Assembly (NCBI GenBank): GCA_963737635.1
Contig: CAVTTL010000001.1
Coordinates: 1,856,001-1,920,000, forward strand
Source: an uncultured Methanoregulaceae archaeon
GTDB lineage: Archaea > Halobacteriota > Methanomicrobia > Methanomicrobiales > Methanospirillaceae
Length of the DNA stretch: 64,000 bases
Reading direction: 5' to 3'
Numbering within the stretch: position 1 is the first letter of the stretch; each line of letters opens with the position of its first letter. A program made the position numbers and the translations under genes. Shown here piece by piece: positions 29,132 to 52,935 of the stretch. The notes below the pieces were generated by a model. That model saw only the letters and a list, made by a program, of their open reading frames with translations. It made no database searches and had not been told where the DNA came from.

Positions 29132-29983
29132 TTATAACGGGAAAAAACGGTTTATTATCAGGAGGATGACGACGAGTGAGGCAAGTATAATGCCCATAAG
29201 GAGATCGAACCGACCGAGTTTCTGCGGTTTGTACTTGGTATGGGGTACAGACTGGCGAAATCCCCGGGCCTGCATAGCGTCGGACGTATTTTTTGACCGT
29301 TTGAGGAGGGAAACGGTCGCCGGGATGAAGAGGGCGGTGAGTTTGTTCCGGATGCCGGTACCATTTCCCCGGTCCAGTTCAAGACCCCGGGATCGCTGCG
29401 CATCCATGATCTGACAGGTATCCTCGGTTAAGAAGGTTGTCGACCGAAGCGCATATCCCAGCGAGAAACTGAGGGTGGGCGGGACTCTCATTCCCTTGAG
29501 GCTTCGTATGAAATCATCATGCGAGGTAGTCATGAGAAAGAGGATCGCGATCCCGCAGATTGCAAGAAGCCGGAATCCCATCGCTAGGGCAAGAACCAGC
29601 CCGGCCCGGGTAACCTCCGGATGAAGAAAGCCGATCGAGGCAGAAAAATAGACCGGGCCGGACGGTGCCTTTGAGAATAAACTATCCAGAACAATGACCA
29701 GGATGAAGAGGGGTGAGGCCAGGGTGAGTGCACCCAGGAATTTCTTTATGATGCCCGAGCTAAGGGCGAGGAGTATTTCGAAAAGAAAAACCAGAACCAG
29801 GACGGCCAATGCACTGAACAGGACTGCAACGATACTCACCACAAGAAGAGCCAGGAGTTTTGTCCGTGGGTCAAGGTGGTGAAGAAATGAGTCTCCGGGA
29901 CTAAAACGGAGGAGCTGCAGGCGCCGGAGTTTCCGGGGTGTTCTTTCTGTATCCGACCTTTCAGGATTCACCTGTAGATTCAC
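29132..29983 (-). CDS. ecfT: ECF transporter transmembrane (T) component
   Basis: SFLHHLDPRTKL, AQRSRG and AMQARGF motifs. Confidence 0.92.
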   Translation of the reverse strand: MNLQVNPERSDTERTPRKLRRLQLLRFSPGDSFLHHLDPRTKLLALLVVSIVAVLFSALAVLVLVFLFEILLALSSGIIKKFLGALTLASPLFILVIVLDSLFSKAPSGPVYFSASIGFLHPEVTRAGLVLALAMGFRLLAICGIAILFLMTTSHDDFIRSLKGMRVPPTLSFSLGYALRSTTFLTEDTCQIMDAQRSRGLELDRGNGTGIRNKLTALFIPATVSLLKRSKNTSDAMQARGFRQSVPHTKYKPQKLGRFDLLMGIILASLVVILLIINRFFPL

Positions 29984-31499
29984 TCCTCACAGAGTCTACT
30001 TCCCGCTTATCCGGATACAGCACCGGAAAGGCACGGGAAGGGTTCCGGTCATCTGCCGTGATGCGGCCGGCCGAGATCCGGATGAACCGGTCCCCGCACG
30101 CCATCCCAAACGCTTCATCATGGGTCGCCACAATGACTGTTTTTTCTGCCGCGCACAAACTGCGGAGAAGACCGGTAAGCAGGTCTTTTAGACTCTGATC
30201 GAGGCCGAATGTGGGTTCATCAAGGACGACGATCGGCGTGTCCATCGCGAGAATACTGGCGAGCGCCACTCTCTGTTTTTCCCCGCCAGATAAGCTGAGT
30301 GGCGGTGTAGACAGATCGATGTGACCGAGCGAACACTGGTTTCGCATCTCCACAACGATCTTCTCAATCTCGTCATGTGTCTTGCCGATATTCTTGGGAC
30401 CGAACGCGAGTTCTTCAGTAATCGTGCTCTCGAAGAGCTGGTAATCTGCGTGCTGGTTGAGCAGACCGACGCTGTGCGCGATGGCGGCGACGGTCTTTGT
30501 AGTGAGAGGTTCCGGACCGAGAAGGATAACCCCCCGGTCCGGGCGAAGAAGACCGTTGCAGTGCTTGAGAAGGGTCGTCTTTCCCGACCCATTTGCGCCG
30601 GAAATGACGGTTATCTCGCCGGGATAGAAATTGAGGGTAATCCCGTCGAGGGCCGGGGCCTGTACCTCCGGGTACTGGTAAGAAACCTCCTGAAATGAGA
30701 GGGATGGGACGCGTGCCTGCCTGTCTGAATGAACGGTAATACTGTCAAGTTCCGGGACAGGAGAACCTGCCGGAACAGCTGCAGGGAGACCTCGTTTCCG
30801 GTCCGCTATGATGATCCCTCCCTCCATGACGATCTGGCGATCCGTTTGCGGCAGCAGGCAGGCAGTGCGGTGCTCAAAAACGATGATCGTAGTTCCACGG
30901 ACTGAGCTGAGTTCTTCAAAGATGTCTGCGAGATTCCGTGCAGCTGCAGCATCGATCCCGGAGAAAGGTTCGTCCATTACCAGGAGAGACGGCTGCAGGG
31001 CTATGACCGAGGCGATTGCTACGCGCTGGCGTTCGCCCCAGGAAAGGTCACTGGTGGACCGACCCAGAAGGTGCCCGATGCGAAAGAGTGCCGCGGTCTC
31101 ATCGATCCTCCTGTGGATCTCCTGTTCCGGCAGGTTGTTGCACTCAAGCCCGAACGCGATCTCGCTCTCGACATCTCCCGCGACCAGCTGATACCCGGGG
31201 TCCTGGAATACCATACCGACGTGCCGGGCGAAATCCGGGGTATCGTACTCTTTGGTATTCATCCCGGCGACGATCACCTCGCCGTCCATGAAGCCTTTTG
31301 TCGCGTGGGGGATAAGCCCGTTCAGGCACCGGGCAAGCGTGGATTTCCCGGAACCGCTCTGCCCGGTAACCAGGACCAATTCGCCGGGCTGGATCGTGAG
31401 ATTGATCTGGTTCAGGGCGGTAACCTGCCTTCCCGACAGGGTTGTGGGATACCGGAACGACAGGTCCCGGATAAGGACGGCCGGATCAAGGCTCGTCGT
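29961..31499 (-). CDS. ecfA: ECF transporter fused double ATPase; apparent ACG start
   Basis: Two Walker A motifs (GQSGSGKS, GANGSGKT) and LSWGE/LSGGE signatures. The frame is open up to ACG at 31499 behind GGGGTGA and includes IRDLSFRY. Confidence 0.9.
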   Translation of the reverse strand, partial: TTSLDPAVLIRDLSFRYPTTLSGRQVTALNQINLTIQPGELVLVTGQSGSGKSTLARCLNGLIPHATKGFMDGEVIVAGMNTKEYDTPDFARHVGMVFQDPGYQLVAGDVESEIAFGLECNNLPEQEIHRRIDETAALFRIGHLLGRSTSDLSWGERQRVAIASVIALQPSLLVMDEPFSGIDAAAARNLADIFEELSSVRGTTIIVFEHRTACLLPQTDRQIVMEGGIIIADRKRGLPAAVPAGSPVPELDSITVHSDRQARVPSLSFQEVSYQYPEVQAPALDGITLNFYPGEITVISGANGSGKTTLLKHCNGLLRPDRGVILLGPEPLTTKTVAAIAHSVGLLNQHADYQLFESTITEELAFGPKNIGKTHDEIEKIVVEMRNQCSLGHIDLSTPPLSLSGGEKQRVALASILAMDTPIVVLDEPTFGLDQSLKDLLTGLLRSLCAAEKTVIVATHDEAFGMACGDRFIRISAGRITADDRNPSRAFPVLYPDKREVDSVRSESTGES

Positions 31500-32031
31500 G
31501 GGTTATCACCCCGGCTTTTAAAAGACGGCTGAGAACCACAGCAGCAATAATACCCCCCAGACCGCCGAAGATGAAATGGGTGATGGATGCGGTGCCGATC
31601 CCGATAATAATAAAAACCGCCGGGATCCCAAGAAATGTCTGGAAAAGGTAGTTCACTACCATTTTTGCAAGGTTTCCCGCGGCCCCGGCGATAAACCCGG
31701 CTACCGGGTGGTCCAGCCGGTAGAAGAAGAAGAGCCCGGCAAGATCGATTGTTCCCGCTAAGGCCATGTAGATGAAAAGGTTGAAGATATGCAGGGTATC
31801 TGTCCCGAAGAGAGTGGCGAGGATCCCCGAAATGAATCCGATATATGTCCCGGCGCCCGGCTTTTTCACGATCCCTACACCGATAATAACCGGCACTACC
31901 CAGTAGATCCCGGTATGCCCGGGAATAGTCAGGGGAAGGGTAAAGGCCGTATTCATGACAAAAACGAGTGCGGCGCACAGCGAGAGCAGGGCAATCTCGT
32001 ACAGCGTAAAATACGGTTTTTTCACCGGCAT
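31486..32031 (-). CDS. ECF transporter substrate-specific (S) component with IPGHTG motif
   Basis: 181 aa, about six TM segments, KKPGAG loop; directly upstream of ecfA/ecfT. Confidence 0.8.
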   Translation of the reverse strand: MPVKKPYFTLYEIALLSLCAALVFVMNTAFTLPLTIPGHTGIYWVVPVIIGVGIVKKPGAGTYIGFISGILATLFGTDTLHIFNLFIYMALAGTIDLAGLFFFYRLDHPVAGFIAGAAGNLAKMVVNYLFQTFLGIPAVFIIIGIGTASITHFIFGGLGGIIAAVVLSRLLKAGVITHDEP

Positions 32032-32034
32032 GTG

Positions 32035-32841
32035 TCACACCCTTATTATCTGTGTCCTTACCCGGAGGGAGAAATTGTCGGGCTGCAGTCGGTCGACCGC
32101 GACCATTAAAAGGAGTGTGTCTCCCGGATCGGTTCCGGTAGCGGTGATGTAGAATGACCCGTCCAGGTCAGTGGTATTGGTGATACCTCCCACCGGTCGT
32201 GCAAGGCTTGGAGTGAGATGGAGAGCTCCCTGACCACTTGTTGCCGGAGGGAAGAATGCAAAGGGATACGTCGTCGCGGTCATTGCATCGGCATCTGTGA
32301 GCAGGTTGTTAGAAACATCAATCGTATACTGGTGCGAGGGTGACTGGGCAAGTGGTGTGGCCCCGGGCATAGAGGTCCCTGCAGTGGCATTACCGGTAAC
32401 GATATAAGCATTTGAACCCGTGCCGCTCTGCCGGTTCGTCCTCGTTGACCTGGGAGGGGTTTCCAGTCCATAGACATCAAAGACTGCCCTGCCACTGAGA
32501 TCGGTGAAATTGTACGTCAAGAGAACGGATCTGGTTCTTACTACATTCGGATTTCCGCTCACCGGAGAGGCATTCAGGTCAATAAACATCAGGTACCAGC
32601 TCCCGTTATCGGGAGCATCTTGTCCCGGTTCGATTCCCATGGGATCGTATCCCGGTCTCCAGGACTGCGGGCCATACTGGAACCCGGCCTTTGAGAAGAT
32701 CTTATCAAGGAGAATGCCGGGTGCCGGGGTCCCGGTATCTGCAGGAAGAATTGTATCACCTAATGTATCCAGAATAACCATCCCACCGAGAAAACAGCCG
32801 AGTAGTACCAGCGCGAGCCCGGCCCGGGTGCGAAACTCCAT
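32035..32841 (-). CDS. N-terminally anchored extracellular protein; circularly permuted copy of the uncharacterised YGPQxW domain
   Basis: TM/signal at the N-terminus. FQYGPQSWRP...YLMFIDL precedes GALHLT...GSFYITATG...LLLMVAV..PDNFSL, the reverse of the order in the other copies. Confidence 0.8.
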   Translation of the reverse strand: MEFRTRAGLALVLLGCFLGGMVILDTLGDTILPADTGTPAPGILLDKIFSKAGFQYGPQSWRPGYDPMGIEPGQDAPDNGSWYLMFIDLNASPVSGNPNVVRTRSVLLTYNFTDLSGRAVFDVYGLETPPRSTRTNRQSGTGSNAYIVTGNATAGTSMPGATPLAQSPSHQYTIDVSNNLLTDADAMTATTYPFAFFPPATSGQGALHLTPSLARPVGGITNTTDLDGSFYITATGTDPGDTLLLMVAVDRLQPDNFSLRVRTQIIRV

Positions 32842-32842
32842 C

Positions 32843-33552
32843 TCAATCCCGTTTGTCCTCGACTAACCGGCCGCTTTCTTCCTTGACAAAGAGGACGGTC
32901 TTGTCTCCAACAGGGCAGGGCCGGGGCGGCTTGTCGGGCCGGAAGAACACCGTCCCGTCAATAAACTGCCTGCCGTCAAGAGAACAGATCTCATCGATAC
33001 CGTGTTCCCGGAGGACTTTTACCGGCGCAGATGTAAGCAGATCGCGGATATCCCCTTTCTGGAGATATCTCCCGTCACTTTTACTGTAAGCAAGTCCGAT
33101 ACCGGCAAGGGCACCGATGACGCCATCCTCGGTACCTCCGAGACCTTTGAGCCTGATGCACAGGTTTTTTGCGAGTGTACGTGCCCTTTCCTGAGTGAGA
33201 ATAGTGCATTTTGCATCTTGGCCGTAGATAATGAGCGAAGGGGTGACCTGGCTTTCGGCAGCCACAGCAAGACCGGGATCGCTTCCCTCCAGGAAATCCC
33301 CGAGCATGACGTCTTCCGCAGTTTTGAAAATACGATCCATGGCACCGTCATCAGCCTGTACATGGATCACCGCGTTGCTGTTGTGGGAGGTATAGGGAAT
33401 ATCCGGGTGGACATACAGCTGGTGTCGTGTAACCCCGTAGACCGGATACTCTGCGGCGACGGTGTCGGCAATCGCCCGTGCCAGTTTCCCGGTACCCGCG
33501 GACCGGTGAGGGTATCGGTATCGTCAATACTGATATAGATCGTGTGGATCAG
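32843..33552 (-). CDS. stand-alone TiaS/Mmp11-like DDTD-motif protein (frameshift near 33497; no ATG at the expected start)
   Basis: Manual translation: IYISIDDTD../GTGKLARAIA...VTRHQLYVHPDIPYTSHNS...SDPGLAV...GVIGALAGIG. Confidence 0.75.
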
Positions 33553-33698
33553 CTCGATCGTACTCTGGGAAAAGAAAACAATTATAGTTTTGTTTAATTT
33601 TCCCGATTCTTAAATGATTGTGATTACCGGGAACGCCGTCGACCAGGGTCATGCCGGACCTGGTTTTTCAGTCCCCTCCTTCGGGGTATTTCCTTCGT

Positions 33699-35231
33699 TT
33701 ATGACCTCCCGGGCACAGCCAACCATTTCCTGAAATTCCCCGGGTCCGGGGCGTCTTTTGCAAACCCGACGGAGATTGCCCGGTTTAGTACCCAGCGGAT
33801 CTTCACCGTCAGTTCTTTATGGGCTCCTATAAGATTCTCCAGTTCTCCCCCCGTTAGTTCAGCGCCGTCACCAATCTCGTGGGAAAGGAAGATCCGGATT
33901 GCCCGGCCGGTCTTCCGGTACGCTTCCGGATAGAGATCGCGGGCGGCATCTGATTCAGCCTCGTTCAAGAGGCGGTTGGCGGCCTCCTGTGGCGATTCCT
34001 TTCGTTCCGGTTCAACAGTAGCAGGGAGATCTTTTTCCCGGAACCGGGCGAAGTACCAGATCCCTGCCGACAGGAGAAGGACACTGGCCAGTGCAATAGC
34101 AGGACCAGCATAGGAAAGCGGATCAACTGGGCTGTCTCCGGCAAATGCGATGACACTTCCGTTCTCAATCTCTGCGCTTGCGTGGAGCATGCGGTTGTCA
34201 GGATTTGAGTAGGTAAGATCTATGGTTTCCTGATCAAGCGTGACATTGATCCCGGTCTGGTTAAGCGTGAACCCGTTACCGGTGACGCTGTTCAGGTAGT
34301 CCTGGTAGGAGGCATTGTCGACCAACACACTTGGAAGGGGGACTGGATCATGAGACGATTCTTCAGCGAACATGACGTGGGTCTCATTTACCGATCCATC
34401 AATAACCGCGGTTTTTTTCCCGGACATATACATCTGTGAAAAAGTCCCGGTACTGTTTGAAACCGGGTGGATATCGGTCTTTTCTAGCATAAAACCACCG
34501 GCGGATAACGAGCGGTTCAGCGATTCTATAAGGGGATCGGTTGTAATATATCCCAACAGTTCATCCTGCTCTTTTTCGGATTGGTTGATTTCGCGTTCAA
34601 CTTCAGACTTGAATGCCTGGCTGTCCTGCGGGATTTGGGCATTGATGATCGCGGCGTCCGGGTTGTTTGCGACGTTTGGACGATTGGACGGTCCTTGTCC
34701 TAACTGACCGGTGCCAAAAGGGTTGCTGCCACTTGAACTGGACAGCGTATCCGTCCCGAACAGGGGGGTCTGATCTGGTGCAGGAGCCTGCGGGTTAGTG
34801 ACATAACGGACAGTAAGTTGTGGAAGGACGACACTGTGCTGGCCGCCGTTATCGTACGTAAAGATCACTGTTACCCTGTAATCTGCGGGAACATCTGATT
34901 CGCCCACGTTTATCATGATAGTCCGTTCATCGGTAAAAGCAGAGAGGGCCAGGGATTTGATGTTCTCGTTTGCCGATGCTGCGTTCTCCTGGACCGTCAT
35001 CAGGCTGAGCGTCCCCGTGACGTCATGGCTGTAGGTACTTACTATTGAGATCGGGAGAGCAGCCTGCATACCCACGGGGAAATAGTAGATATCCTGCGGT
35101 ATCGAGAGGTTAACGCCATCAGCAGCAACTGAAGGGATACCCAGAAAAATGGCAACAATGAGGAAGAGACCGGCTATCGGTAGTGTGGTAATATACCGTA
35201 GGTCCTTTGTTTGCCGGTTTGGATGGATCAT
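33699..35231 (-). CDS. secreted, single-TM membrane protein with cytoplasmic helical tail
   Basis: Signal peptide, beta-rich ectodomain, TM AIALASVLLLSAGIWYF, helical tail (AYRKTGRAIRIFL). Confidence 0.75.
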   Translation of the reverse strand: MIHPNRQTKDLRYITTLPIAGLFLIVAIFLGIPSVAADGVNLSIPQDIYYFPVGMQAALPISIVSTYSHDVTGTLSLMTVQENAASANENIKSLALSAFTDERTIMINVGESDVPADYRVTVIFTYDNGGQHSVVLPQLTVRYVTNPQAPAPDQTPLFGTDTLSSSSGSNPFGTGQLGQGPSNRPNVANNPDAAIINAQIPQDSQAFKSEVEREINQSEKEQDELLGYITTDPLIESLNRSLSAGGFMLEKTDIHPVSNSTGTFSQMYMSGKKTAVIDGSVNETHVMFAEESSHDPVPLPSVLVDNASYQDYLNSVTGNGFTLNQTGINVTLDQETIDLTYSNPDNRMLHASAEIENGSVIAFAGDSPVDPLSYAGPAIALASVLLLSAGIWYFARFREKDLPATVEPERKESPQEAANRLLNEAESDAARDLYPEAYRKTGRAIRIFLSHEIGDGAELTGGELENLIGAHKELTVKIRWVLNRAISVGFAKDAPDPGNFRKWLAVPGRS

Positions 35232-35480: not shown

Positions 35481-37714
35481 ATGATCGAACCACGACAGGC
35501 AGGATGCCGAACGCAAGCCTGGAGGACAGTCCTCGTCATCGTTTTGGGTCTTTCTTTTTGTGTTGCACCGATACTTGCGGATGACGAGGCCGGCTCCGTT
35601 GGCGTATTTCCAGGATATTATGATATCAGTAACGTTATCTTTGCAAACGCAAACCAGGGGGCTTATTATTTCGCGTTCGATGAAGACGGCGGGGGGATCA
35701 ACGCCATCCATATGGCCTCGACCGATCAAGCCGCACCAAACTACGGTGATGTAACGACCACGACCTCCCCATCCGGTACGTTCTATATCACCGATACCGG
35801 CGGACGGGGATACCAGGATGAAGCCATTTTAATGGTCGCTGCAAAGGCACCGATCCCAAGCAACTTTTCCATCCATATCACATCCAGCGGGTATACCTGG
35901 ACCCCGACCGGGAATGCAAACGATCAGCCCATTCTTGCCAACGTCACGTATCACACCGGTATCGACTCTACGTTTACCCCCGGCCAGTTTGTCTACGGCC
36001 CCCAGAACTGGCGTCCTGCCGGGAAAAACCAACCGGAGAATTATCCCCTTTACAATGGTGACGATACCACCGATACGATCGATACATATTATCTGATGTT
36101 TGTCGATCTTAAGTCCGGGCCTTTAGGTCCCCATGGAAGCAATATCGATGAGAACACGATCAACACCCTCAATAACCACGGGGCGGTCCGGGTCGATTAT
36201 ACCCTCAGTAACTTAAATGCCGTCGTTGCATTCGATGCCTATTGCTGGAACTCGAATACCAATGGTGGTCCCCTGACCGACAGGGGCATCTCCTGGTCAA
36301 ATGGTCTCAATAGTCAGGCATCTGTTCCTTCGATGATCAGCGGGTATACCGTCCTTGGTCCTGCCTACGCCAGCGATCAAGGAGAGTTCCCCACCTTGGC
36401 CGGCCAGTCCCCGCAGTACAAATCACCCGATGCCTCATTTACGTCCAACGCAACATCCGGGACCGCGCCGCTTACCGTCCAGTTTACGGATACCACGCTC
36501 CAGTCCGTCAAAACATGGTCCTGGGACTTTGGTGACGGGAGCAACTCATCCGCGCAGAACCCGACGCATACGTATACGACCGCGGGAACCTATACCGTCA
36601 CCATGACCGTAACAAATCCCCAGGGAATGAGCGGTTCGGCGACGCAGGTCATTACAGTCACATCCTCCTCCGGCGGGAGTTCGTCCGGAGGGAGTGGCGG
36701 GGGAAGTGAGAGTGGTGGCTCCAGCGGTGGTTCAGGCAATAGTTTCGTTCCGGCGCAGGTCAGTTTCACCTCAAACGTAACCACCGGCGTAGCCCCGCTT
36801 GCGGTCCAGTTCACCGACACCTCGACCACCCGGAATATTTCGAGCTGGGCCTGGAACTTCATGGGGGGTAATAGTACGGATAGTTCTGAGCAGAACCCGA
36901 CGTTCGTCTTTACCAATGTCGGGAATTACACGGTGAACCTGACGGTAACTACATCAGACGGATCGGTCCTCAACGTCTCCCGGCAGGAGTACATCCAGGC
37001 GACTCTTCTCCCGGCATCCATGGGGGGCGGGTGGGTCTCCTCGGACCAGTATACCCCTCCTGCCACTACCGTGACGTATCCCCTGTCTGCGATTCCCTCC
37101 GGTGGATCAGCGACGGTTAACATCAGCCAGGAGGTGACCAGTACCGATCCGGCGGGATCAATTCGATCAGCATAACTGCAGCACGTTCGATCGCCGATAC
37201 AACCCTCAACGTTTCAGAAGGGGATGGCGGTGTCGATACTTCCCAGATCTCCAGTCGCCCGATAGCGGGCGTCGTCCAGATCGAACCGGTCGGCGTAGAC
37301 CCGTCATCGGTTAGCAGCGGGACCATCACGTTTGCGGTCAGTGATTCCTGGGTAACGTCTCACCAGATTTCAACCTCTGATATCGTCCTTGATCGCTATC
37401 ACGAAGGAAACTGGGTCGATCTCCCGACCGCGTACTCCTACCAGACCGGCGGATTGGATTTCTTTACCGCAACAACTCCCGGGTTCTCGTTCTTTGCCGT
37501 GACCGCAAAGTCGTCTACTGCAATGGTATCATCCGATACCGGTACGAATGGAGGTACGCAGGCAGTGAAATCGCCGGGAAATGCATCTCCTGCCGCGGTT
37601 TCATCCACTGGCAGATTTTCTCCTCTTGGGGTGAAGGTTGCCGAGACCCTTCTGGATTGCTTAATCGTCGTCGGTGTTGTCGGCGCCGGGGTGATCGTGT
37701 GGAAGAAGCTGTAA
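35481..37714 (+). CDS. surface protein: YGPQxW domain + 2 PKD + PGF-pre-PGF + TM anchor (frameshift near 37152)
   Basis: Signal peptide, WDFGDG and WNFMGG PKD domains. After a +1 shift the frame reads IEPVGVDPSSV...TTPGFSFFAV and ends in TM-WKKL. Confidence 0.85.
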
Positions 37715-37784
37715 CCGGAATCTACGGGTCAGCCGGATGTGTGTGCCAGACGGTTGGGGGCATATCTGAAGAGCGGGGACAGCC

Positions 37785-38567
37785 ATGGAACCTTTTGCAC
37801 TCACTACCATAACCGTCCTTCCCGGGAAGGCCAGGAACGGCTGCAGCGAATCCTTCAAGGAGATCACGATCCGTGCCGGTGATATGATATCGATTGTCGG
37901 CCCGACCGGTTCCGGGAAGACTGCATTCATCAACGATATCGAGGTCTTCGCCCGGAACGATACAGTGACCGGGCGCACGATCCTGGTCAATGGGGAAGTC
38001 CCCCCGGATGAGATGGTGCGGGACCCGGCACGAAAACCGATCGCCCTCATTACCCAGAACACCAAGTGTCTTGCGGATCTGACGGTCCGGGAGTTCCTAG
38101 AGATGCATGTGAAAGCCCGCAGGATCCCGGACGAATCCCGTACCGAGACCACGATCACCCTTGCAAACGAGTTTACCGGCGAGAAGATCGCGGGGGGGAT
38201 GCGGATGACGGCACTCTCCGGCGGTCAGACCCGGTCGCTCCTGATCGCTGATGCCATCGCGGTCAGCAGCGCCCCGATCATTCTTCTCGACGAAGTGGAG
38301 AGCGGGGGGATCTTTAAAGAGAATGTGATCGCGTCCCTCAAGAACAACAACAAAGCGGTCCTCTTTGTCACGCACGATCCTCTTCTTGCCCTCCTTTCGG
38401 ACCGGCGCATCGTCATGAGGAACGGGGCGGTTGAATCTATCCTCGAACCGGAAGGACGCGAGAAGAAGGTCCTCGCCCGGATCTCGGAACTTGACCGCTA
38501 CCTCTCCAGGATGCGGGAGAAGATCCGGGCCGGGGAACTCCTGGAAGATGAGGTGCCGGTCCCATGA
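37785..38567 (+). CDS. ABC-type ATPase with no adjacent permease
   Basis: GPTGSGKT, LSGGQ, ILLDEVE, VTHD. Confidence 0.9.
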   Translation: MEPFALTTITVLPGKARNGCSESFKEITIRAGDMISIVGPTGSGKTAFINDIEVFARNDTVTGRTILVNGEVPPDEMVRDPARKPIALITQNTKCLADLTVREFLEMHVKARRIPDESRTETTITLANEFTGEKIAGGMRMTALSGGQTRSLLIADAIAVSSAPIILLDEVESGGIFKENVIASLKNNNKAVLFVTHDPLLALLSDRRIVMRNGAVESILEPEGREKKVLARISELDRYLSRMREKIRAGELLEDEVPVP

Positions 38568-39273
38568 AACTGCTCATCTTTGCCGGACCCCCCAGTGCCG
38601 GAAAGACGGCTGTAATCCGCCAGATTATCCGGCAGCTGGCTCAGAAGTATGCAATCGCCTTTCTCAAGATCGATGTCGTACGGGCGTTCGAAGACGAGGA
38701 GTTGTCGGCGGAGTTCGGGATCCCGGCACGGAAAGTGTATTCCGGGGACGTCTGTCCGGATCATACCGGTATTCTGGTCCTCCGCGACGCGATCTCCTGG
38801 GCCGACGATCTCGGCGCCGGTATCCTGATCGTAGAGAGTGCCGGACTCTGTCTCCGGTGCACACCTTATACAACGCAGTCTCTCGGTATCGTCGTGCTCT
38901 CCGCGGTCGGTGGGACGAACAGTCCCCTCAAGATGGCGCCGATGATCGCGCTTGCCGATATTGCCGTTGTCACCAAGGTCGACTTGATTTCACAAGCGGA
39001 AAAAGAGGTCTTCCGGGAACGGGTGCGGGAGGTTGCGCCGGAGGTCGATATCATCGAGACCAATGCAGTGCAGGGAACCGGGACTCAGGTACCTGATGAA
39101 GGCGATAGAAGAAGTTCCTGCCATGACCGCCCCGGATGCGATCGTTCTCCGGGGCATGCCGCCGCTTGGGGTCTGTACCTATCTGTGCCGGGAAAAAGGA
39201 GATCGGGTGGCAGCACCATTTCGGGATCCTCAAGACTCTTGACAGTGCCGACGACCTCTACCGGGGAGAGTGA
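38564..39273 (+). CDS. UreG/HypB-like (G3E) GTPase (two frameshifts near 39081 and 39180)
   Basis: GPPSAGKT, CPDH, VESAGLCLRC, VTKVD. The repaired C-terminus reads GVCTICAGKKEIGWQHHFG...YRGE*. Confidence 0.85.
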
Positions 39274-39279
39274 AGGTTC

Positions 39280-40924: not shown

Positions 40925-41128
40925 ATGTCTGCAATCAAAACGAATGCTGTATATAAAGAAGGGACGCTGATACTTGAGGATCGTGTGAACCTGCCGGAAC
41001 ATGCCCGGGTAGAAGTTGTTATCCGGAAAAAATTTTCTGATTTCGTGAAAACCTTTGGAGCACCCGAGGCCAAAGAAGATATTGAAAACACTCTTGCGAA
41101 AAACCGGAGACGCATACGGGATGCATGA
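40925..41128 (+). CDS. DUF104/AF2212-like antitoxin
   Basis: IKTNAVYKEGTL..L...LPE..RVEV; overlaps the PIN gene. Confidence 0.8.
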   Translation: MSAIKTNAVYKEGTLILEDRVNLPEHARVEVVIRKKFSDFVKTFGAPEAKEDIENTLAKNRRRIRDA

Positions 41129-42572: not shown

Positions 42573-42977
42573 TCACCCGAACAGAAGCCCTCCTGCCTCT
42601 TCTACGAACACTTCGATATCCTTTTTGATGAACCTCCCATGGATACGTTTCGGGAACTCCTCCCGCAGACGGTTGATGAGATCTATCGGATCGATTTTCA
42701 GGTCCATGCCTATTTTTTTGGCCTCCTCAACAATGAAAGGGGCCGAATCGAAGAGGTCAGATCCCTCGTTGAGGACGCAGAGAGGGCGGGCATCCAAGGT
42801 GTAAAAAAGATCCATGGTCTGTTTCGCACGCCGTACATTCTTTTTTGCCGATTTTTCTATGCTGCAGACGTTTGCTTTTGAGGTATGGAACATATCCGCT
42901 ATCTGCTGCTGTGTCATCCCGTTCTTCCGGTATCTCAGTACTTCCAGTTGCCGGTCGGTAAACAGACTTTCTCCCAT
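42573..42977 (-). CDS. Tfx family DNA-binding protein
   Basis: LFTDRQLEVLRYRKNGMTQQQIA...TSKANVCSIEKSA HTH plus a Tfx-like C-terminal domain; GGTGA SD. Confidence 0.88.
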   Translation of the reverse strand: MGESLFTDRQLEVLRYRKNGMTQQQIADMFHTSKANVCSIEKSAKKNVRRAKQTMDLFYTLDARPLCVLNEGSDLFDSAPFIVEEAKKIGMDLKIDPIDLINRLREEFPKRIHGRFIKKDIEVFVEEAGGLLFG

Positions 42978-43810: not shown

Positions 43811-44039
43811 AGAGATCCTTTCGTTGAGAATAGCGACGTTTCCCAAAATTGTGCCCGGTATCCAGGAGGGCTAGGGCATCCTGCGCGATCTCTTCCTGCG
43901 TCTCGTGATGCATCCAGAATTCAAGAGCCTGCGTAGTGGCTTCCCCAAGAGATCCTTTTCTCCCGCCCATTTTTTTCCGGACGAGTTTCCGGAATTTTTC
44001 TTCAGTGGAGTTCTCGATGGTGAGAGTAATGGTGCCCAT
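43800..44039 (-). CDS. RHH-like antitoxin
   Basis: MGTITLTI...EEKFRK...GSLGEA; overlaps the PIN gene. Confidence 0.8.
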   Translation of the reverse strand: MGTITLTIENSTEEKFRKLVRKKMGGRKGSLGEATTQALEFWMHHETQEEIAQDALALLDTGHNFGKRRYSQRKDLYDR

Positions 44040-44897: not shown

Positions 44898-44955
44898 TAG
44901 TTGACACATGCAGAGCGGAGCTCTGCGTGGAAAATGACAAAATGAGGTAAAGAGT

Positions 44956-45912
44956 ATGAAAACAGAAAACGTGAAAAGAAACAGACTATGGGCGATGGCC
45001 GCAATGGTCGTCGTCCTGTTTGTCGCGCTGGCAGCAATGCCGGTGGCGGCACAAGATGCAAACCCGTTGAATCCTCAGAATATCCTGAATATTCCCGTAA
45101 TCAATAAACAGCGGGTCAGCATAAACGAGACAACTGCTCCGGGCACATACTTCTTCGATATAGGGAATAACCTTACCAACGGCGGGCAGAATGCTGTTCA
45201 CGTCACCGATACCAATGCAACACCCAATGGTATCTTTCACAACAGCAGTATCCTGAACCCAAGTGACGTCGACATGCTGAACGGGTCGTTCTATATCTCC
45301 GATACCGGAGGGAAAGGTTACGAGGACGAGGCGATCCTTCTCATTGCAGCGAGCGATGTGGACCCCGATACCTTCTCGATCCATATCAAATCCGAGGGCT
45401 ACAAATTTACCGATCACGCACCCAACTCGCCACCCATTTATCCGAATCAAACAGGAACATTTAACCCCGATGCCTATGAAAATACATTCCACCTGAGTGA
45501 TGCCATAAACGGCAACTCTGATGGCGCAAATCCTCCAGATGCAGCATTGCAGAACTGGAAATGGTCGACATCATCCAGCGACAACGTTAACGAAAAGTTG
45601 TTCTACGAAGAGAATCTGGGATCGGAAGACGATTATAACATGATCCTGGCCGATCTCAACACCAGCATTGTGGGCACCGCGGCCCCCACCGGAGGTGGCA
45701 ATGCATCCTACCGGAATCTCCTGACATACAACGGTAACCCGAAGATCACGTACAATATCACCGGACTCGGGGACACTGGGCGGGTAGCCTTTATACCCTA
45801 TGCCTATGTTGCTTACCAGACGGGAGGCGGAAGCTACTTTAACGAGACGGTTGGCTGGACAGACCGGGCATCGGGAGATTACTGGGTCGTGAACGCCACA
45901 CCACTCGTATAG
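44956..45912 (+). CDS. secreted protein consisting of one divergent YGPQxW-family domain, no anchor
   Basis: Signal peptide ending PVAA; GGQNAVH...GSFYISDTGGKGYEDEAILL...QNWK...MILADL; no C-terminal TM. Confidence 0.85.
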   Translation: MKTENVKRNRLWAMAAMVVVLFVALAAMPVAAQDANPLNPQNILNIPVINKQRVSINETTAPGTYFFDIGNNLTNGGQNAVHVTDTNATPNGIFHNSSILNPSDVDMLNGSFYISDTGGKGYEDEAILLIAASDVDPDTFSIHIKSEGYKFTDHAPNSPPIYPNQTGTFNPDAYENTFHLSDAINGNSDGANPPDAALQNWKWSTSSSDNVNEKLFYEENLGSEDDYNMILADLNTSIVGTAAPTGGGNASYRNLLTYNGNPKITYNITGLGDTGRVAFIPYAYVAYQTGGGSYFNETVGWTDRASGDYWVVNATPLV

Positions 45913-46264: not shown

Positions 46265-49200
46265 ATGCAGGTCATCCGCCGTTTCCCTCCTCTGTCCCTC
46301 ATCTTGGTCATTCTGGGTATTCTTGTTCTTCTGGTATCTCCAGTTGCAGCGGGGCTCATATTGCCAACTGATAACAGCAACGTGAACCAGAACTCGATTC
46401 ACGAAAAGATGCTCCAGCTGCCGCTCTCGTTCATCCAGAATGCGGGACAGGCACCGGGTGCAGTGAAATACTCCGTGCAGGCCGAAGGCAACACAATCTC
46501 GTTCACGCCGAATAAGATTGTCCTCATCGCATCGGGCGAGAAGAACTATGCCGCGGCCAACTCGCAGGTCACCATGACCTTCCCCGGCGCAAACACCGCG
46601 CCTACGATAACGGGACTCGACCGGCTTACCGGCAACGCGAACTATTTTGTCGGCAACGACAAATCGCAGTGGCGCACGGATGTCCCGACCTATGGGGCCA
46701 TCCAGTACACGAGCCTGTACCCGGGCATCGATCTCCAGTACAAGGGAACGGAAGGCAACCTGAAGCGCCAGTTCGTGGTGGCGCCCGGCGCGGATCCATC
46801 CCACATCGTGATGGCCTATGACGGGATCCAGTCCATGAGTATCTCACCTGACGGCTCGCTGGAGCTGACCACTTCTTTAGGAGTGCTTACTGACCAGGCA
46901 CCGGTTGCGTACCAGGAAATAAACGGGGTCAACGTCCCGGTCACGGCAGGATACCAGATCGTGGGAGACAACAAGGTCAGGTTCACGCTCGGGAACTATA
47001 ATCCGGAATACCCGCTCGTCATCGACCCGTGGCTGAGTTATTCGACATACCTAACTGGATCCGCCACAAGTTCGCAGTTGTATGGGGTAGCCCACGATAC
47101 TGAAGGGAACATTGTTGTTGCCGGGTATGCAGTTGCCGGTTATCCCACGACGTTGGGTGCATATCAGATTGCCAATGCTGGTGGTTCGGATATAATTGTC
47201 ACGAAGATTACTCCTGATGGATCAGGTATTCTCTTTTCCACCTTTATCGGAGGGTCCAGTACAGAGACGTGTTACGGGATGGCGCTTGATCCTTCAGGAA
47301 ATATCTATGTCACCGGCTCGACGAAATCCAGCAATTTCCCTCATGTGAATGCTTTCCAGCCCTCAGAAAATGGAACAACGCAGGATGCCTTTGTCACAAA
47401 ATTGGCCCCAACAGGAAATTTTCTTGTTTATTCCACATATCTGGGTGGCTCGTCGACTTACGATGCCGGGTACGGCATTGCTGCAGATGCTGCGGGAAAC
47501 GCCTACGTAACCGGGGAAACAACGAGTGGTTTTCCGGCTGTGAACGCTTCACAAGGCGCAGGGGGCAGTTACGATGCATTTGTGGCAAAGTTCAATCCTA
47601 CCGGGGGAGTGGTCTATTCGACTAATCTTGGGGGATCGGGTACCGAAGACTTCGAATCCACGGTATGCCGTAGTAGCTGATTCGGCGGGGAATGCGTATG
47701 TTGTCGGAAGTACCCAATCGACCAACTTCCCGGTAACAGCCGGTGCCTACCAGACGACTTTTAGCGGCGGCACTAGTGGGGATGGCTATCTTGTAAAATA
47801 CGATCCGGTAGGAACAAAACTCTATGCCACCTTTATCGGAGGTAGCGCACGGGTATATATCCAGTCGCTGGCAATTGACTCCGCCGGATCGCTCTATATC
47901 AGCGGAGAGACGACAGGTCAGATCAACACAACATTGGGTGCAATGAATCCAACGTATCTGTCTGGTGATACGGCGGAAGGCTTTTTAATGAAGATGAATG
48001 CCTCCCTCGAATCGCTGGATTACTCGACCCTCTATGATCAGCAGGCCGGCTCCTATGCGGACGATGGGGGACAAAGCATTGCCGTGGATTCATCAGGAGA
48101 CGCATACGTCGCGGGGTATACCGGTAAAACGGCATTCCCGGTAATTAACTGCAATTTCGGACTTACCGGAACCGGAAGCACCTCGAACTTTGCCGGATAT
48201 GTATTCAAGATGAATCCCACGGGCTCCGCATTCCTCTGGTCATCCTATCTGGGGGGCAGCAGCACAAAACCCGAAGGGATCACGATTGACGGGATGGGTA
48301 ATGTCACCATTGCCCGGCTTTACCACATCGTCATCATTCCCGCTGGTCAACGCACTTAATGCGACATACACCGGTGGCACTTCCAACAACGGGTTCATCT
48401 CCACGGTAACGGAAACTACTCCCGCGGTAGGTTTTACCGCCACGAATCTCTCCGGCCCCGCTCCTCTTACCGTGTCCTTCACGAACAGCGTGGTTGATCC
48501 GGCAAATTCGTGGAACTGGGACTTCGGGGATGGCGCCACCTCAACCAGCCAGAGCCCGGTCCATATCTACACCAATGCCACACCTGCCAACTACACCGTC
48601 TCCCTTACGGGGACGAACTCTTATGGCAGCCATACGGTTACAATGACCAATTATATCCAGATAACTCCACCTCTACCGGTTGTCAGTTTCACCGCGAACA
48701 GGACCTATGTTGAGGCTCCCGGTACAGTCCAGTTCAATGACACCTCAACCGGATCCCCCACCTCATGGCTCTGGAATTTCGGGGACGGCACCAACTCCAC
48801 CTTGCAGAATACTACACATACTTACAATAACCTGGGAACGTACAACGTCTCGTTTAAGGCAAGCAATGTCGGTGGGTCCAACACGACCAACATGACGATC
48901 ACCGTCCTGGACACTCCTTCCCAGCCGATCTCCGCGTCCGATTACGTCAATGTATACGTGGCAAATACTGAAGGTGTGAAATACGACGTGCCCAACGGTG
49001 TTTCGGCATCAAACGCAACCTATCCCTACGAACCGAATACGTACTACCTCGACCTCGAGGGCGGCCTCAACCCGTTCCACATGTCGTCGCTGAGCAATGG
49101 GATGTCAGCGGCAGACACCAACATCACCACGAGCCAGTCCGGCTCGTTCTGGATCACGTTCAACGGCGGCCAGACGACGATGCCGGACGCGATCCTGATG

Positions 49201-52200
49201 CTGGCGGTCAATGGGAGTATCCCGAACGACTTCGCGGTCAATATTCAGTCAAGCGGTCAGACCTTTGATGTGGGAACCCCGTCAACCACGAACCAGTACC
49301 AGAGTGGACCGCCGGCAGTCTCGACTTTTGTGCCGGTAGGCATCAACGAGTCCTTCAACAAGAGCGATTTTATCTACGGCCCCCAGGGCTGGAAACCCTG
49401 CAGCACCTCCGGCTACCCCCTGAATCCTGCCAATACGAACATTAACGATCCCACCAACCAGTTCCGGATCATGTTCATCGATCTCCGGGTAGGGGCGATC
49501 CAGAACTCATCCCTGCCGGACAACGGCATGATCCAGGTCCAGTACAACTTCACGAACCTCACCAGCACCGCGGTCTTCAACGGCTATGGCTGGTACATGC
49601 AATGCAACCATGGGACCGGCGCGCCCATGACCAACGCGATCCCGGGCGGCGGCGGCGTGATCGTCTATGGCATCGCAGCACCGCCGGTCGCAAGTTTCAC
49701 GGCGAACACCACGGCCGCATATGCCCTCGCCGGGATCCAGTTCACAGACACATCGACCAACATCCCGCAATCATGGCTGTGGAACTTCGGGGACGGGACT
49801 AACTCCACCCAACAGAACCCGGTCCACGCGTACAGCAGCGCAGGTGTCTATAACGTGTCACTCACCGTATCAAACTTCCTGGGTAACAACACCGCGACGC
49901 AGACCAATTACATCACGGTGACCATTCCCCCGGCGCCGGTCGCCGGGTTTACTGCAAGTGCAACCACCGGGCCCGCACCCTTAACCGTCCAGTTCAGCGA
50001 TACATCGACAAATTACCCGATATCGTGGCTCTGGAACTTTGGGGACGGTACCACCTCGACCAGCGAAAACCCCTCGCACACGTATACGACGACCGGAAAT
50101 TTCCCGGTAAGCCTCACTATAATGAACGCCGGGGGGAACAGCAGCATCCAGATGCCGGGAGGCATCACGGTGTATACCTCCGGGGCACCCATTGCGAGCT
50201 TCACGGCGACCCCGGTGAACGGTGTCGCACCGCTTGCCGTCCAGTTCCTCGATACCTCAACCGGTTCCCCGACATCATGGTTGTGGAACTTCGGGGATGG
50301 CACTACCTCGACCAGCGAGAATCCCTCGCATACCTACACCTCAGCAGGCACGTACACGGTCAATCTTACTGCAACCAACAGCGCGGGAAGCACCAGTCTC
50401 ACCCGGACCGGGCTCGTGTACGCCGCTGCATCGACCGGCGCTCTTCCGACCTACAGTGGTATCTATATCCGGGCCGCGAACCATGAGGGCATCCTCTATA
50501 ATACCAACAGCAACGGGACGTATTACGCCAATTCCGGTTCGTCAGGAGGAGGCCTGAATGTAATCCACGTATCGACGGACCCGACAGTGAACACCGGCCA
50601 GGTCACCGTCTCCCGGAGCCTGTCCGGGACCATCTATGCCACCAGTTCCGGGACCTATGCCGATGATGCAATTCTCATGCTTGCGGTCAACGGGACCATC
50701 CCCAATGACTTCTCGGCTCACATTACCACCAGCGGGTACATCTGGACACCCGCGGGTTCGACACCGGCATCCGGGAGCATCACGTACCAGTCGCCGGCCT
50801 TAAGCGAGACCTTTACGAAGAACGACCTCTTCTATGGACCCCAGAACTGGAAACCCACAGAGGGCAATGCGAACTACCCGCTCTTCTCTGGCGAGGACAT
50901 GAACAGTTCGGCAAACCAGTACCAGCTCGCGTTCATTGACCTCAGGGCCGGCATCCCGGGGACCAGTTATCCCGGCTATTCCAGCCTCACGAACCAGGGC
51001 GCAGTGCGGATCGACTACCGTTTCAATGACCTGCCCAGCTTTGCAGCCTTCAACATCTATGGATGGAAGAGCGGTACGGGCATGGGCTGGACCAACCAGC
51101 TGCACCGGTACCGGGAGCAGCGGGTACTCGGTCATCACACCCACAATCACGATACCCCCGGTCGCCGGGTTCACCGTGAGCCAGTCAACAGGCCTTGCGC
51201 CAGTCAACATCCAGTTCACAGACAGCTCGGCGAATACCCCCACAAGCTGGCTGTGGAACTTCGGCGACGGTAGTACATCGACTGTCGAGAACCCGGTCCA
51301 CACTTTCAACTCATCCGGTACCTACACCGTTTCATTGACGGCAACAAACGCCGCCGGAAACTCTACGAGCACTCAGGCCGGTGAGGTCACGGTCAGCGCG
51401 CCGGTCGTGACCACCAACTGTTGCACGTTCACCGGTATCCAAACGATAACAGCCGGCAGTACCCAGAGCGTTATTGTCAATACAACCGGAACCACCACAA
51501 TCACTGCCGGGAACTTCATCAACATGACCGGCATGGGCGGCAGCTGGAGCAACCTCTCGATCGCACTCACAAGCCCGCCGGTAACCAGCGGGTCGAACCT
51601 GAGCGGCACCGTCAGCAGCGTCCAGGCGGTCACCCAGCCGGTAACGGTCCCGATCACCTCGCTGGGCAACCCGAACGTCTCCGTCTCCCTGAACCTTGCC
51701 CAGATCCCCGGGTCGACTGCCGCCATTACCAGTACCATCACGTCCGATCCCAATACCACGGTTCAGAGTAACTTCACGCTCGCTGCAACCGCTGCCAGCG
51801 ACCAGATCGTTGCCACTGCATACACGGTAACCTTCACCAAGTCCGGTATCGCAAATGCGGCAAACGGCGGGATCATCTCAAGCGCAACGATCACCATGGC
51901 AGCCAGTCCCACATGGGTGGCCGCAAACGGCGGTACCTCTGCGATGGTCATCATGCACCAGGCTGACGATGGCACGACAACCATTCTCACGACACAGTTT
52001 GCCGGCACCGATGCCAGCGGTAACGACGTCTTTACCGCGGTCTCGCCAACCGGTCTCTCGACTTTCATCCTGACCGCAATCTCGCCGCTCTCGTCGACAA
52101 GCACCGGGTTCACGTCCGGGTTCGGCTCCTCCGAATCGGGAGGGTCCCTGAATCCGACCTCGTTCACCCTGACTGCACCCGGTACCGGGCCCGGCCAGAC

Positions 52201-52935
52201 CATGAACTTTGCCGTTAACGAAGCTCTCAACGGCAACCTGAACTACGGCATCAGCGCCGTTTCGATCGTCCCGTCCAAGGCTCTCGGCTCGACGCAACTG
52301 AATGTGGGTGACGCAGGGATGGCCATCGCATCGGCGCTTACCGGCCGGCAGATTGCCGGTGTGGTATCGATTGAACCGGTCGGGGTCAACCCATCATCCA
52401 TCGATCACGGCACCATCACGTTCGCACTGAACGGTGCCTGGCTGACGACACACTCCCTGACACCGGCTGATATCGTGATGCTCCGGGATGTGAACGGCCA
52501 GTGGACTGAACTCCCCACCAGTTTCTCGACCCAGAGCGGCAGTACTTATACCTTCACCGCGACAACACCGGGCTTCTCGTACTTCGCCATCGCAGGCCGG
52601 GTTCCCTCAGCGGCAGCCGCCACACCGGCTACAACCACGTCATCCCTCCAGTCTGCTGCTCCGGGATCAGCGTATACCGGTACCAACGACGACCTTCCTC
52701 TACCCGGTAAAAACACAACAGACGACCGCTATCCCGGTGGCCATGCAGGCGTCTTCAGTGACCGCAAAACCGGCTGCAACGACCGGGATGAATTCCCTGA
52801 TCATCATCGCCGGAGGAATCGCCGGGATAGCTCTGATCGCCGCCGGCATAGCGCTAATTGCCGCCGGCGGGCTTCTCGTCCGGCGCTGGTGGATCCGCCG
52901 GGCAGAACCCGGCCCTGTTCCGGAAATACGATTAA
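46265..52935 (+). CDS. giant surface protein (~2200 aa): SBBP beta-propeller, six PKD, two YGPQxW domains, PGF-pre-PGF, TM anchor (five frameshifts)
   Basis: ORFs 46265, 47574, 48286, 50936 and 52737 join through +1 shifts near 47652, 48313, 51104, 52670 and 52901. YSTYLGGS repeats, [14 protein letters not shown]; repaired end [17 protein letters not shown]. Confidence 0.85.

Follow-up and report, generated by a model that had tools for sequence, protein, structure and literature searches.

The DNA described here is a window of 64,000 nucleotides (the whole stretch that was analysed) from the genome of an uncultured Methanoregulaceae archaeon (assembly GCA_963737635.1, contig CAVTTL010000001.1, positions 1,856,001 to 1,920,000). 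Between window positions 29132 and 52935 it carries an island of genes in which an energy-coupling factor (ECF) type importer and an enzyme related to the kinase-like TCKD domain of TiaS are surrounded by surface proteins that share one unnamed extracellular domain, which we call DOM. The importer genes lie on the minus strand, in an operon that begins with the TCKD-like gene (32843..33609, -), which is split over two frames, with the piece encoding the motif ISIDDTDT at 33367-33609 and the rest at 32843-33523. This is followed by the gene for PERM (32035..32841, -), a protein of 268 amino acids (aa) with one N-terminal transmembrane (TM) helix at residues 5-29 of the hydrophobicity scan and a permuted copy of DOM (C-half-like 32470-32709, N-half-like 32059-32319), and then by the genes for the S component (31486..32031, -), a fused double ATP-binding cassette (ABC) ATPase or ECF A-A' module (29961..31379, -; a 472-aa open reading frame (ORF) starting at the first Walker A motif, with two ABC_tran stretches, 170 bits) and a T component of the CbiQ family (29132..29983, -). 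The T component scores 99.5 bits against Pfam CbiQ (cut-off 25) and 76.3 bits against NCBIfam ECF_T_CbiQ, under the cut-off of 111.8. The S component, 181 aa long with a P-G-(H/S/N) motif, passes Pfam ABC_cobalt (PF09819) marginally, with 27.8 bits against a cut-off of 25.2; it is hydrophobic throughout, with three long hydrophobic stretches in the hydrophobicity scan, its orthologues keep E12, P37, G38, Y88 and D96 invariant (alignment A5), and it has no relative among the PDB sequences. The operon thus holds what defines an ECF importer, namely a CbiQ-family T component, two ABC ATPase domains and a small integral-membrane S component in place of a soluble binding protein. Beside it, on the same strand, is the gene for a 510-aa membrane protein (33699..35231, -), which according to the hydrophobicity scan has a signal-like helix, an extracellular part, a TM helix at 372-397 and a cytoplasmic tail, and which belongs to no Pfam or NCBIfam family.

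DOM is a beta-rich extracellular domain of ~230 aa, present in the window as four collinear copies and the one circularly permuted copy in PERM. A profile of 34 family members places the collinear copies at 35487-36362, 44956-45900, 48886-49662 and 50317-51138, in three proteins encoded on the plus strand. The first (35481..37711, +) is a surface protein consisting of a signal, DOM, two PKD domains (PKD_4 97.8 bits), a PGF-pre-PGF domain (63.6 bits, cut-off 28) and a C-terminal TM helix. The second (44956..45912, +) is a secreted single-DOM protein of 318 aa, with an N-terminal signal-like helix and no anchor. The third (46265..52948, +) is a giant surface protein, now in four ORF pieces, that carries two DOM copies and runs from a signal through DUF7948, SBBP beta-propeller repeats, PKD, DOM, three PKD, DOM and PKD to PGF-pre-PGF (64.3 bits, same cut-off) and a C-terminal TM helix in another frame. 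The PGF-pre-PGF and TM endings of the 35481 and giant proteins can be read only across frameshifts. The first-pass annotation of this DNA, made by a model without database searches, had sorted the carriers of the domain into soluble, stalk-borne and membrane-proximal classes, and the hydrophobicity scan and the PGF-pre-PGF ends agree with that sorting; its placing of the operon, of a trio of ABC ATPase, GTPase and Fe-S genes and of a Tfx gene is likewise matched by the ORF listing and the family scans.

The same annotation had claimed five copies of one domain, the fifth of them permuted, each retaining a histidine and none assignable to a named family, and each of these points held. In a MAFFT alignment the four collinear stretches share 30-42% identity with the first copy and 34 invariant columns, among them positions of GG-x-N-xx-H, G(T/S)F, AIL, P..F, G.Q.W, DL and F..Y. 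BLASTP aligns PERM residues 45-124 with residues 161-254 of the 35481 protein (E 7e-9) and PERM residues 175-261 with residues 48-133 of that protein (E 1e-7); since the C-part is paired first and the N-part second, the halves of PERM stand in swapped order. Profile-profile comparison with hhalign also matches PERM 162-263 to DOM profile positions 31-134 (probability 99.3%, E 2.3e-20). A phmmer search against 1.84 billion representatives returned 210 proteins at E<=1e-3, 65 of them at E<=1e-10, a yield that places the likeness within the family beyond chance; about half of these relatives are ~300-aa proteins made of a signal plus the domain, and the remainder reach up to 2800 aa. The histidine is present in 5/5 copies in the window, in 30/34 sequences of alignment A2 (counted by eye), in 86% of 105 unique collinear copies and in 18/18 PERM orthologues, whose alignment (A3) has 17 invariant columns with H208 among them; it is therefore well kept across the family, though not invariant. 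The best-kept positions in the 105 unique copies are several glycines, D239, Q205, Y272, F285, Y288 and a loop (S)DTGG(R)G.

The domain itself matches no model of Pfam or NCBIfam, either in the window copies or in the 34 relatives, whose tails gave two matches to PEP-CTERM (2/34), one to dockerin (1/34) and one stray match. In particular, DOM does not belong to the NEAT family, as judged from the Pfam families of the window proteins and of the 34 relatives. The DOM profile found nothing meaningful among the PDB sequences, and the 44956 protein had no usable match in the protein atlas. The AlphaFold2 (AF2) model of the 44956 protein consists mostly of beta strands (predicted local distance difference test, pLDDT, 74.8). 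Leukocidin, spike and antibody rows were considered as structural relatives of DOM and set aside, their TM-scores being <0.2. DOM is an unnamed domain family, for which we found no description in the literature searched.

At least seven frameshifts fall within 24 kb, some in well-conserved genes and several at G5/C5 runs (window 33480-33560, 37150-37200, ~39090, 47574-47680, 48286-48359, 50936-51273 and ~52660). The genes interrupted in this assembly are those for the TCKD-like enzyme, the 35481 protein and the giant protein (four breaks or more), and probably that for the trio GTPase, in its tail. A paralogous giant elsewhere in the genome likewise loses its C-terminal TM frame, near locus position 16100. 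Because of the G5/C5 runs, the conserved genes that are hit and the same break in the paralogous giant, the frameshifts look like homopolymer indel errors of the assembly rather than pseudogenes or decay, and they may explain the 90% completeness estimate of the genome. That paralogue belongs to a second DOM module ~1.58 Mb away (L001, contig 304000-323900), which holds three of the nine DOM matches of the genome, the other six being those in the window (four collinear copies and two PERM halves). The second module consists of a Tfx gene (7575-7979, -; locus positions), a small secreted DOM gene (8460-9464, +) and the giant gene (9650-16246, +), which encodes an intact protein of 2198 aa with two DOM copies. 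Over their last 2.7 kb the two giant genes share 82.6% DNA identity, pointing to a recent duplication or to gene conversion. In the window, a Tfx-family DNA-binding regulator is encoded at 42573..42977 (-; NF003057 177.2 bits against 168, TIGR00721 97.4 against 60.25), and two PIN-domain (VapC-like) genes lie at 41055-41597 (+) and 43373-43846 (-). The window Tfx is 79% identical to that of the second module, which sits divergently beside the small DOM gene; as Tfx and small DOM genes are direct divergent neighbours there, the PIN gene at 43373, which in the window stands between them, seems to have been inserted.

The association of these genes, the conservation of which the first-pass annotation had proposed to test, extends far beyond this genome. 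The order TCKD-PERM-S-AA was found in 5/5 first genomes, from four families, and in 20/20 further loci, that is in 25/25 loci of the Methanomicrobiales, and the T component follows the ATPase in 22/25 of these orthologous loci (5/5 and 17/20). The gene for the 510-aa membrane protein is present in 16/20 of the further loci and in 2/5 of the first genomes (L014 and L018). Collinear DOM genes lie within the fetched stretches of 5/5 first genomes and of 18/20 further loci (+/-10 kb), and in the remaining 2/20 the DOM copies lie just outside the stretch. A search detected DOM in 62 and PERM in 55 of 301 Methanomicrobiales genomes (one even draw), the latter from 17/43 genera, and neither in 239. 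All 55 PERM genomes hold a DOM match, in 53 of them at a best E<=1e-63; in the other two, both fragmented, the match is weak and is possibly PERM itself. These genome counts are inflated by kinship. PERM is distributed patchily, over five families and in 7/48 genomes of the archaeon's own genus. Outside the Methanomicrobiales, in four Methanobacteriaceae genomes and Ca. Argoarchaeum, 17/17 DOM matches lie within ~12 kb of a TCKD gene, so that the tie between DOM and TCKD holds also where another importer is present.

When one genome per species was scanned with the TCKD-like alignment, 80 loci were obtained; annotated by local hidden Markov models (HMM), they fall into three layouts. In the first, TCKD-PERM-S-AA-T is flanked by DOM genes, as in Methanoregula, Methanolinea, Methanoculleus, Methanofollis, Methanogenium, Methanosphaerula, Methanospirillum and Ca. 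Argoarchaeum. In the second, that of the Methanobacteriales, TCKD stands beside DOM surface proteins and no PERM or ECF genes were found; here TCKD comes after MotA/ExbB and DUF2149 genes and a gene for a DUF11 protein, and adjoins a FecCD/Peripla_BP_2/ATPase importer. In the third, in Bacteroidales, other bacteria and Thermoplasmata, TCKD is followed by the same S-component family, without DOM. DOM, PERM, the ECF importer and the TCKD-like enzyme are a conserved unit across five families and beyond the order. This bears on the proposal of the first-pass annotation that the locus is a capture relay feeding an importer: the linkage of DOM, PERM, ECF and TCKD genes stood (25/25 loci, 55/55 genomes) and a molybdenum or tungsten (Mo/W) cargo has become likely, while binding and relay are steps that we infer. 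It also makes very improbable the explanation that DOM genes and ECF operon merely co-ride one variable genomic island with no functional link, for although the patchy occurrence (7/48 genus and 55/301 order genomes), the PIN toxin-antitoxin genes inside the island and the varying number and architecture of DOM proteins would all suit it, the operon itself encodes a DOM domain, that of PERM, in every one of the 25 loci, co-occurrence is 55/55, and all DOM copies lie near the TCKD gene in the five genomes of other orders.

Modelled together, PERM and the S component reach an ipSAE of 0.44 (runs 0.44, 0.31 and 0.44) against 0.00 for the best control, with runs agreeing in at least 48% of contacts and a partner pLDDT of at least 72. 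In calibration, the ipSAE mark was reached by 58/80 solved complexes and 2/110 mismatched pairs; those reaching it at 0.60 or under were only 7 of the 80 solved complexes and both mismatches, and the counts apply only roughly to PERM and S, whose prediction used its own alignments. The predicted complex weakly supports a role of PERM as an accessory to the S component.

Intact orthologues of the TCKD-like enzyme are 234-241 aa long. The enzyme resembles methanogenesis marker protein 11 (NCBIfam methan_mark_11, E 5.8e-11, 42 bits) and TiaS (NF040849, E 6e-5, 21.8 bits), in both cases below the cut-off (255.8 and 600, respectively), and an orthologue from the same genus found nothing meaningful among the PDB sequences. 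The AF2 model of that orthologue (pLDDT 87.1) has TiaS chains as all of its top nine Foldseek matches, with 3amt_A at E 3.4e-9, probability 1.00, over 158 columns with a root-mean-square deviation (rmsd) of 2.6. Of the DDTD motif, D14 and D15 are invariant in 13 diverse sequences, and T16 and D17 nearly so. The likeness to TiaS and marker protein 11 covers the N-terminal ~160 residues, with the TCKD kinase-like fold and the DDTD motif, whereas the full architecture and the equivalog score of TiaS are missing: TiaS (tRNA-Ile2 agmatidine synthetase) is about 420 aa long, with further domains that the TCKD-like enzyme does not possess, and acts in tRNA modification, while the genomic context of the TCKD-like enzyme is transport. 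On the strength of the model, the protein is a kinase-like TCKD domain of catalytic type, and not a TiaS.

The company kept by the TCKD/S core in other lineages gives an indication of its substrate. In an Rfam scan of 31 bacterial and Thermoplasmata loci (428 kb), the molybdenum cofactor (Moco)/tungsten riboswitch RF01055 gave eight matches in 6/31 loci, all six of them in Firmicutes, with 62-73 bits against a gathering score of 36; apart from these, the scan found one tRNA and no cobalamin or NiCo riboswitch. The riboswitch lies upstream and in the same orientation in four of these Firmicutes homologues (L087 66.9 bits, L105 70.3, L102 62.2 and L114 63.6). In L087 it is followed by genes for a lipoprotein, TCKD and S, and in L105 by those for a Big_5 protein, FecCD, ATPase, Peripla_BP_2 and three TCKD proteins; L105 has a second riboswitch before a molybdopterin oxidoreductase and XdhC and another before a further binding protein, three within 12 kb in all. 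In the Syntrophomonas-type loci L102, L105 and L114 (about 6400-8800), three tandem TCKD paralogues come after a MolA-like ABC importer of the FecCD type, and the binding protein of L105 has as its best PDB match HI_1472 (E 1.7e-29), which we take to be the molybdate/tungstate-binding protein MolA. MolBC-A has been described as a molybdate importer (PMC4031551).

In the Bacteroidales-type loci, a gene with a ModE repressor domain precedes TCKD in 13/15 loci of the clustering (TIGR00637 78.2 bits, below the cut-off of 98.5), and in 12 of these 13 there follow S, a 310-aa protein and a TonB-dependent receptor. This Bacteroidales operon (L088-L111, about 7600-12500) is unannotated and its 310-aa protein is without a family; in six Bacteroidales loci, a protein with a type IX secretion system (T9SS) sorting tail follows the operon. 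A homologue of the beta subunit of the Mo storage protein (2ogx_B, E 2.2e-64) adjoins TCKD in 4/4 Desulfocapsaceae loci (L110, L113, L115 and L116), and in an archaeal metagenome-assembled genome of the Methanomicrobiales (L084) another stands beside TCKD (6053-6859, -). To our knowledge, Mo storage proteins have been little studied outside Azotobacter. In Methanobacterium (L057), tungsten Fwd subunits above the NCBIfam cut-offs flank TCKD; gene clusters of this kind occur in 8/18 Methanobacteriales-type loci, and in two loci of the Methanomicrobiales (L082 and L058) a TCKD gene that stands alone is likewise flanked by Fwd. One characterised Tfx protein binds a Methanobacterium promoter (PMC10570040). 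A Tfx gene is present in 4/5 same-genus loci (L014, L021, L022 and L023) and also in L041 and L044. The Tfx-bound promoter was reportedly that of the molybdenum Fmd operon, in the work of Hochheimer et al. from 1999. We know of no archaeal Moco riboswitch. Taken together, the riboswitches, the ModE-like regulator, the MolA-like protein, Mo storage, tungsten Fwd and Tfx make Mo/W our best guess for the core, whose substrate is, by this analogy, probably Mo/W-related. Mo/W had been one of several candidate substrates in the first-pass annotation, and gains from the riboswitches, the ModE-like regulators and the Mo-storage and tungsten-Fwd neighbours.

The trio encoded downstream of the 35481 gene, which the first-pass annotation had counted as part of the system, consists of a soluble ABC-type ATPase (37785..38567, +; Pfam ABC_tran 54.5 bits), a G3E-family GTPase of the CobW/HypB/UreG fold with the motif CPDH (38564..39349, +; Pfam cobW 48.7 bits, cut-off 20.7) and the long form of an Fe-S-domain protein with a His-rich tail (39280..40140, +; Pfam FeS, PF04060, 28.1 bits). 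The cobW match bears out the nucleotide-binding domain of the G3E superfamily, whereas the UreG likeness claimed in that annotation does not extend to the equivalog, since UreG scores 33.1 bits against a cut-off of 204.2 and HypB 66.6 against 121.2. Orthologues of the GTPase align only to residue ~175, and its last ~80 residues probably lie out of frame. In Methanoregula and Methanolinea loci the trio ATPase is found next to the TCKD island, and in one Methanoculleus and one Methanosphaerula locus (L047 and L063) the trio stands immediately upstream of a second TCKD gene. The long Fe-S form occurs in 15/55 PERM genomes and in 0/246 others, while a short paralogue (206 aa) is found in 170/301 genomes, including this one. 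We considered the trio as a mere neighbour at the level of the genus and dropped this idea in view of its position upstream of TCKD paralogues and of the restriction of the long Fe-S form to PERM genomes; for the same two reasons, the trio of the window is an island-specific paralogue, which favours the view of the first-pass annotation that it belongs to the system. The genome also possesses a paralogous trio (L121, contig 435000-451000; 7583-9758, -), made up of an ABC ATPase, a G3E GTPase and a 204-aa Fe-S protein, in which the ATPase is likewise split by a frameshift.

We propose that the locus serves nutrient acquisition, as an accessory island of patchy inheritance with Mo/W as its most likely substrate, a reading that we hold with about even confidence. 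Its old core would be the small ECF-type S component with the cytoplasmic, ATP-using TCKD-like enzyme, which in the Methanomicrobiales and Ca. Argoarchaeum comes with an energising module of its own (the fused A-A' ATPase and T) and the membrane-anchored PERM, with secreted and C-terminally anchored DOM proteins surrounding the core. The DOM proteins, standing at differing heights above the membrane, would bind the substrate, most likely molybdate/tungstate or a complex or cofactor form of Mo/W; PERM would hand it to the S component, and the ECF module would import it. The TCKD-like enzyme may then process or trap the imported species with ATP, the paralogous trio of ABC ATPase, G3E GTPase and Fe-S protein may handle it further in some lineages, and the Tfx regulator may control the DOM genes. 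Ligand binding by DOM and PERM, hand-over, substrate identity, the TCKD reaction and control by Tfx are the parts of this scheme that we infer. More tentatively, and with doubt outweighing belief, DOM might be taken as a new class of extracellular domain binding molybdate/tungstate (or a Mo/W complex), whose secreted, stalk-borne and permuted copies would relay cargo to an ECF-type Mo/W importer not recognised before, with the TCKD-like enzyme activating or trapping it; TCKD/S would then be a widespread and so far unannotated module of Mo/W homeostasis in anaerobic bacteria and archaea, controlled by Moco riboswitches, by ModE-like regulators and, in methanogens, by Tfx.

A number of observations weigh against the proposal. 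What speaks for Mo/W was found with homologues in other phyla, which are 35-45% identical, and not at this locus, and the bacterial extracytoplasmic partners (the lipoprotein, the Big_5 protein, the 310-aa protein, the T9SS-tailed protein and the DUF11 protein) score <=5.5 bits against the DOM and PERM profiles, which indicates no homology. The S and T components match Pfam families named for cobalt, and the His-rich tail and the G3E GTPase of the trio fit Ni, Co and Zn cations better than oxyanions. The genome has a ModA homologue (118.9 bits), so that the island does not replace ModABC; it has no WtpA match. A 9-mer search of nine intergenic regions of the island found no shared operator word, the only words in common being AT-rich ones in three regions, and thus gave no sign of a common Tfx site. 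The second Tfx/small-DOM/giant-DOM module has no ECF or TCKD gene nearby, and seven genomes carry DOM without PERM. As for the domain itself, the histidine is absent from about 14% of collinear copies; Foldseek gave 0 matches at E<=1e-3 between the DOM model (pLDDT 74.8) and the PDB; the best VIA-align result, Z 6.0 (7fe0_A, rmsd 4.0, 148 aligned), stands among generic Ig-like and beta-sandwich rows; and DOM caps adhesin-like multidomain proteins with PKD, NosD/beta-helix, Big_2 and CHB_HEX_C domains.

The cobalt-type families of S and T and the metallochaperone-like trio, with its CPDH-motif GTPase and His-tailed Fe-S protein, would suit a system with the proposed architecture whose substrate is another metal or metallo-cofactor (Ni, Co, corrinoid, F430 or a chelated metal) instead of Mo/W. 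The surroundings of TCKD genes can be read in the same direction: the neighbouring FecCD/Peripla_BP_2 importers are of the siderophore/heme/B12 class, and the MotA/ExbB and DUF2149 genes that come before TCKD in Methanobacteriales form a pair which is annotated as HmuU/HmuV in the heme-uptake hmu operon of Porphyromonas gingivalis (PMC11681262). The regulatory evidence points elsewhere, as Moco/W is the only riboswitch class near TCKD (eight matches, 31 loci) and no regulator evidence was found for Ni, Co, corrinoid or F430; with the ModE-like regulator, the Mo-storage homologue and the tungsten-Fwd neighbours, and with HI_1472 as the best solved relative of the binding protein, we consider a substrate other than Mo/W unlikely.

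Similarly unlikely, in our judgement, is that DOM is the head domain of adhesins or envelope proteins with no part in nutrient capture, so that the ECF/TCKD genes would, for example, import or recycle a small molecule used in building, modifying or attaching the surface proteins, and PERM would serve as their docking site at the membrane. Such a role would suit the occurrence of DOM as the N-terminal module of giants that have stalks of PKD, beta-propeller, beta-helix and Ig-like domains and end in PGF-pre-PGF, the PEP-CTERM or dockerin tails of some family members and the generic beta-sandwich fold. It would also account for the second DOM module of this genome, without a transporter, and for TCKD genes beside DOM genes in loci where neither PERM nor ECF genes turned up. 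What tells against it is the core itself, since in bacteria and Thermoplasmata the TCKD/S pair occurs without DOM in Mo/W-regulated operons, as would a metabolic uptake unit; in addition, the operon of each lineage has recruited some extracytoplasmic protein unrelated to the others (a lipoprotein, alone or with a TonB receptor, or a Big_5 protein), which fits capture better than the building of an envelope.

As a proposed acquisition island for Mo/W, the locus can be compared with several known systems. In the Isd heme acquisition system of Gram-positive bacteria, NEAT domains relay heme to the ABC importer IsdEF. As there, a single type of extracellular domain recurs here on proteins that are secreted, anchored by wall or stalk, or close to the membrane, and their genes surround those of an importer. 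The differences are that DOM has no NEAT match in 34 members, that the importer is of the ECF type and not dependent on a binding protein, that the membrane-proximal copy is permuted and that the likely substrate is Mo/W-related rather than heme, with a relay by DOM being part of our proposal. BtuG/BtuB provides surface capture of B12 in Bacteroidota, where, as also in HmuY/HmuR for heme, a surface protein passes a scarce cofactor to a transporter; the Bacteroidales layout of the core (ModE-like regulator, TCKD, S, 310-aa protein and TonB-dependent receptor) recalls these systems, although the archaea have neither an outer membrane nor a TonB receptor and DOM is not homologous to the bacterial partners. 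Nik(MN)QO with NikK/NikL and CbiMNQO are ECF metal transporters with extra extracytoplasmic components, and share with the present operon a CbiQ-family T component, ABC ATPases, a small S component and an additional membrane-anchored extracytoplasmic protein; here, in contrast, S is of the PF09819 type and not CbiM/NikM, the accessory is a permuted DOM and a TCKD-like enzyme is always co-encoded. With ModABC, WtpABC, TupABC, MolBC-A and the Mo storage protein, the TCKD/S core has in common its Mo/W regulatory and genomic company, but none of the four importers is of the ECF type or comes with a TCKD-like enzyme or surface domain proteins. In the literature searched, we found neither ECF transporters nor TiaS-like enzymes linked to Mo/W, and neither an Mo/W system of the ECF type nor a TCKD enzyme associated with transport was described there. 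As proposed, the island would be a variation on nutrient acquisition by surface capture plus importer, made of parts that are themselves new.

Methanogens need W or Mo for formylmethanofuran dehydrogenase, which carries out the first step of CO2 reduction, and for formate dehydrogenase, and both are in short supply in peat, sediments and digesters. If the proposal is correct, the ECF importer, the TCKD-like enzyme and the surface-capture domain family would constitute a new route of Mo/W acquisition, a function would be given to an unnamed domain in hundreds of archaeal surface proteins, and the TiaS kinase-like fold would have its first role outside tRNA. It would also allow annotation of a conserved gene pair under riboswitch and ModE control in Firmicutes, Bacteroidales and Desulfobacterota, and a circular permutation would here set the membrane-docked copy of a domain apart from its free counterparts, which is rarely met in nature. 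Should the guess about the substrate prove wrong, the conserved DOM/PERM/ECF/TCKD unit would still offer experiments a well-defined target.

Two further genes lie near the ends of the island. Downstream of it, a surface-type ORF of 1092 aa (window 55399-58677, +), in which no DOM copy was detected, has PKD-like DNA similarity to the giants. At the other end, the gene at window 28242-29018 (+) encodes a protein of 258 aa that has an N-terminal TM helix and belongs to no family; it keeps its place just past the T component in four same-genus loci (L014 and L021-L023) and may be a further member of the island.

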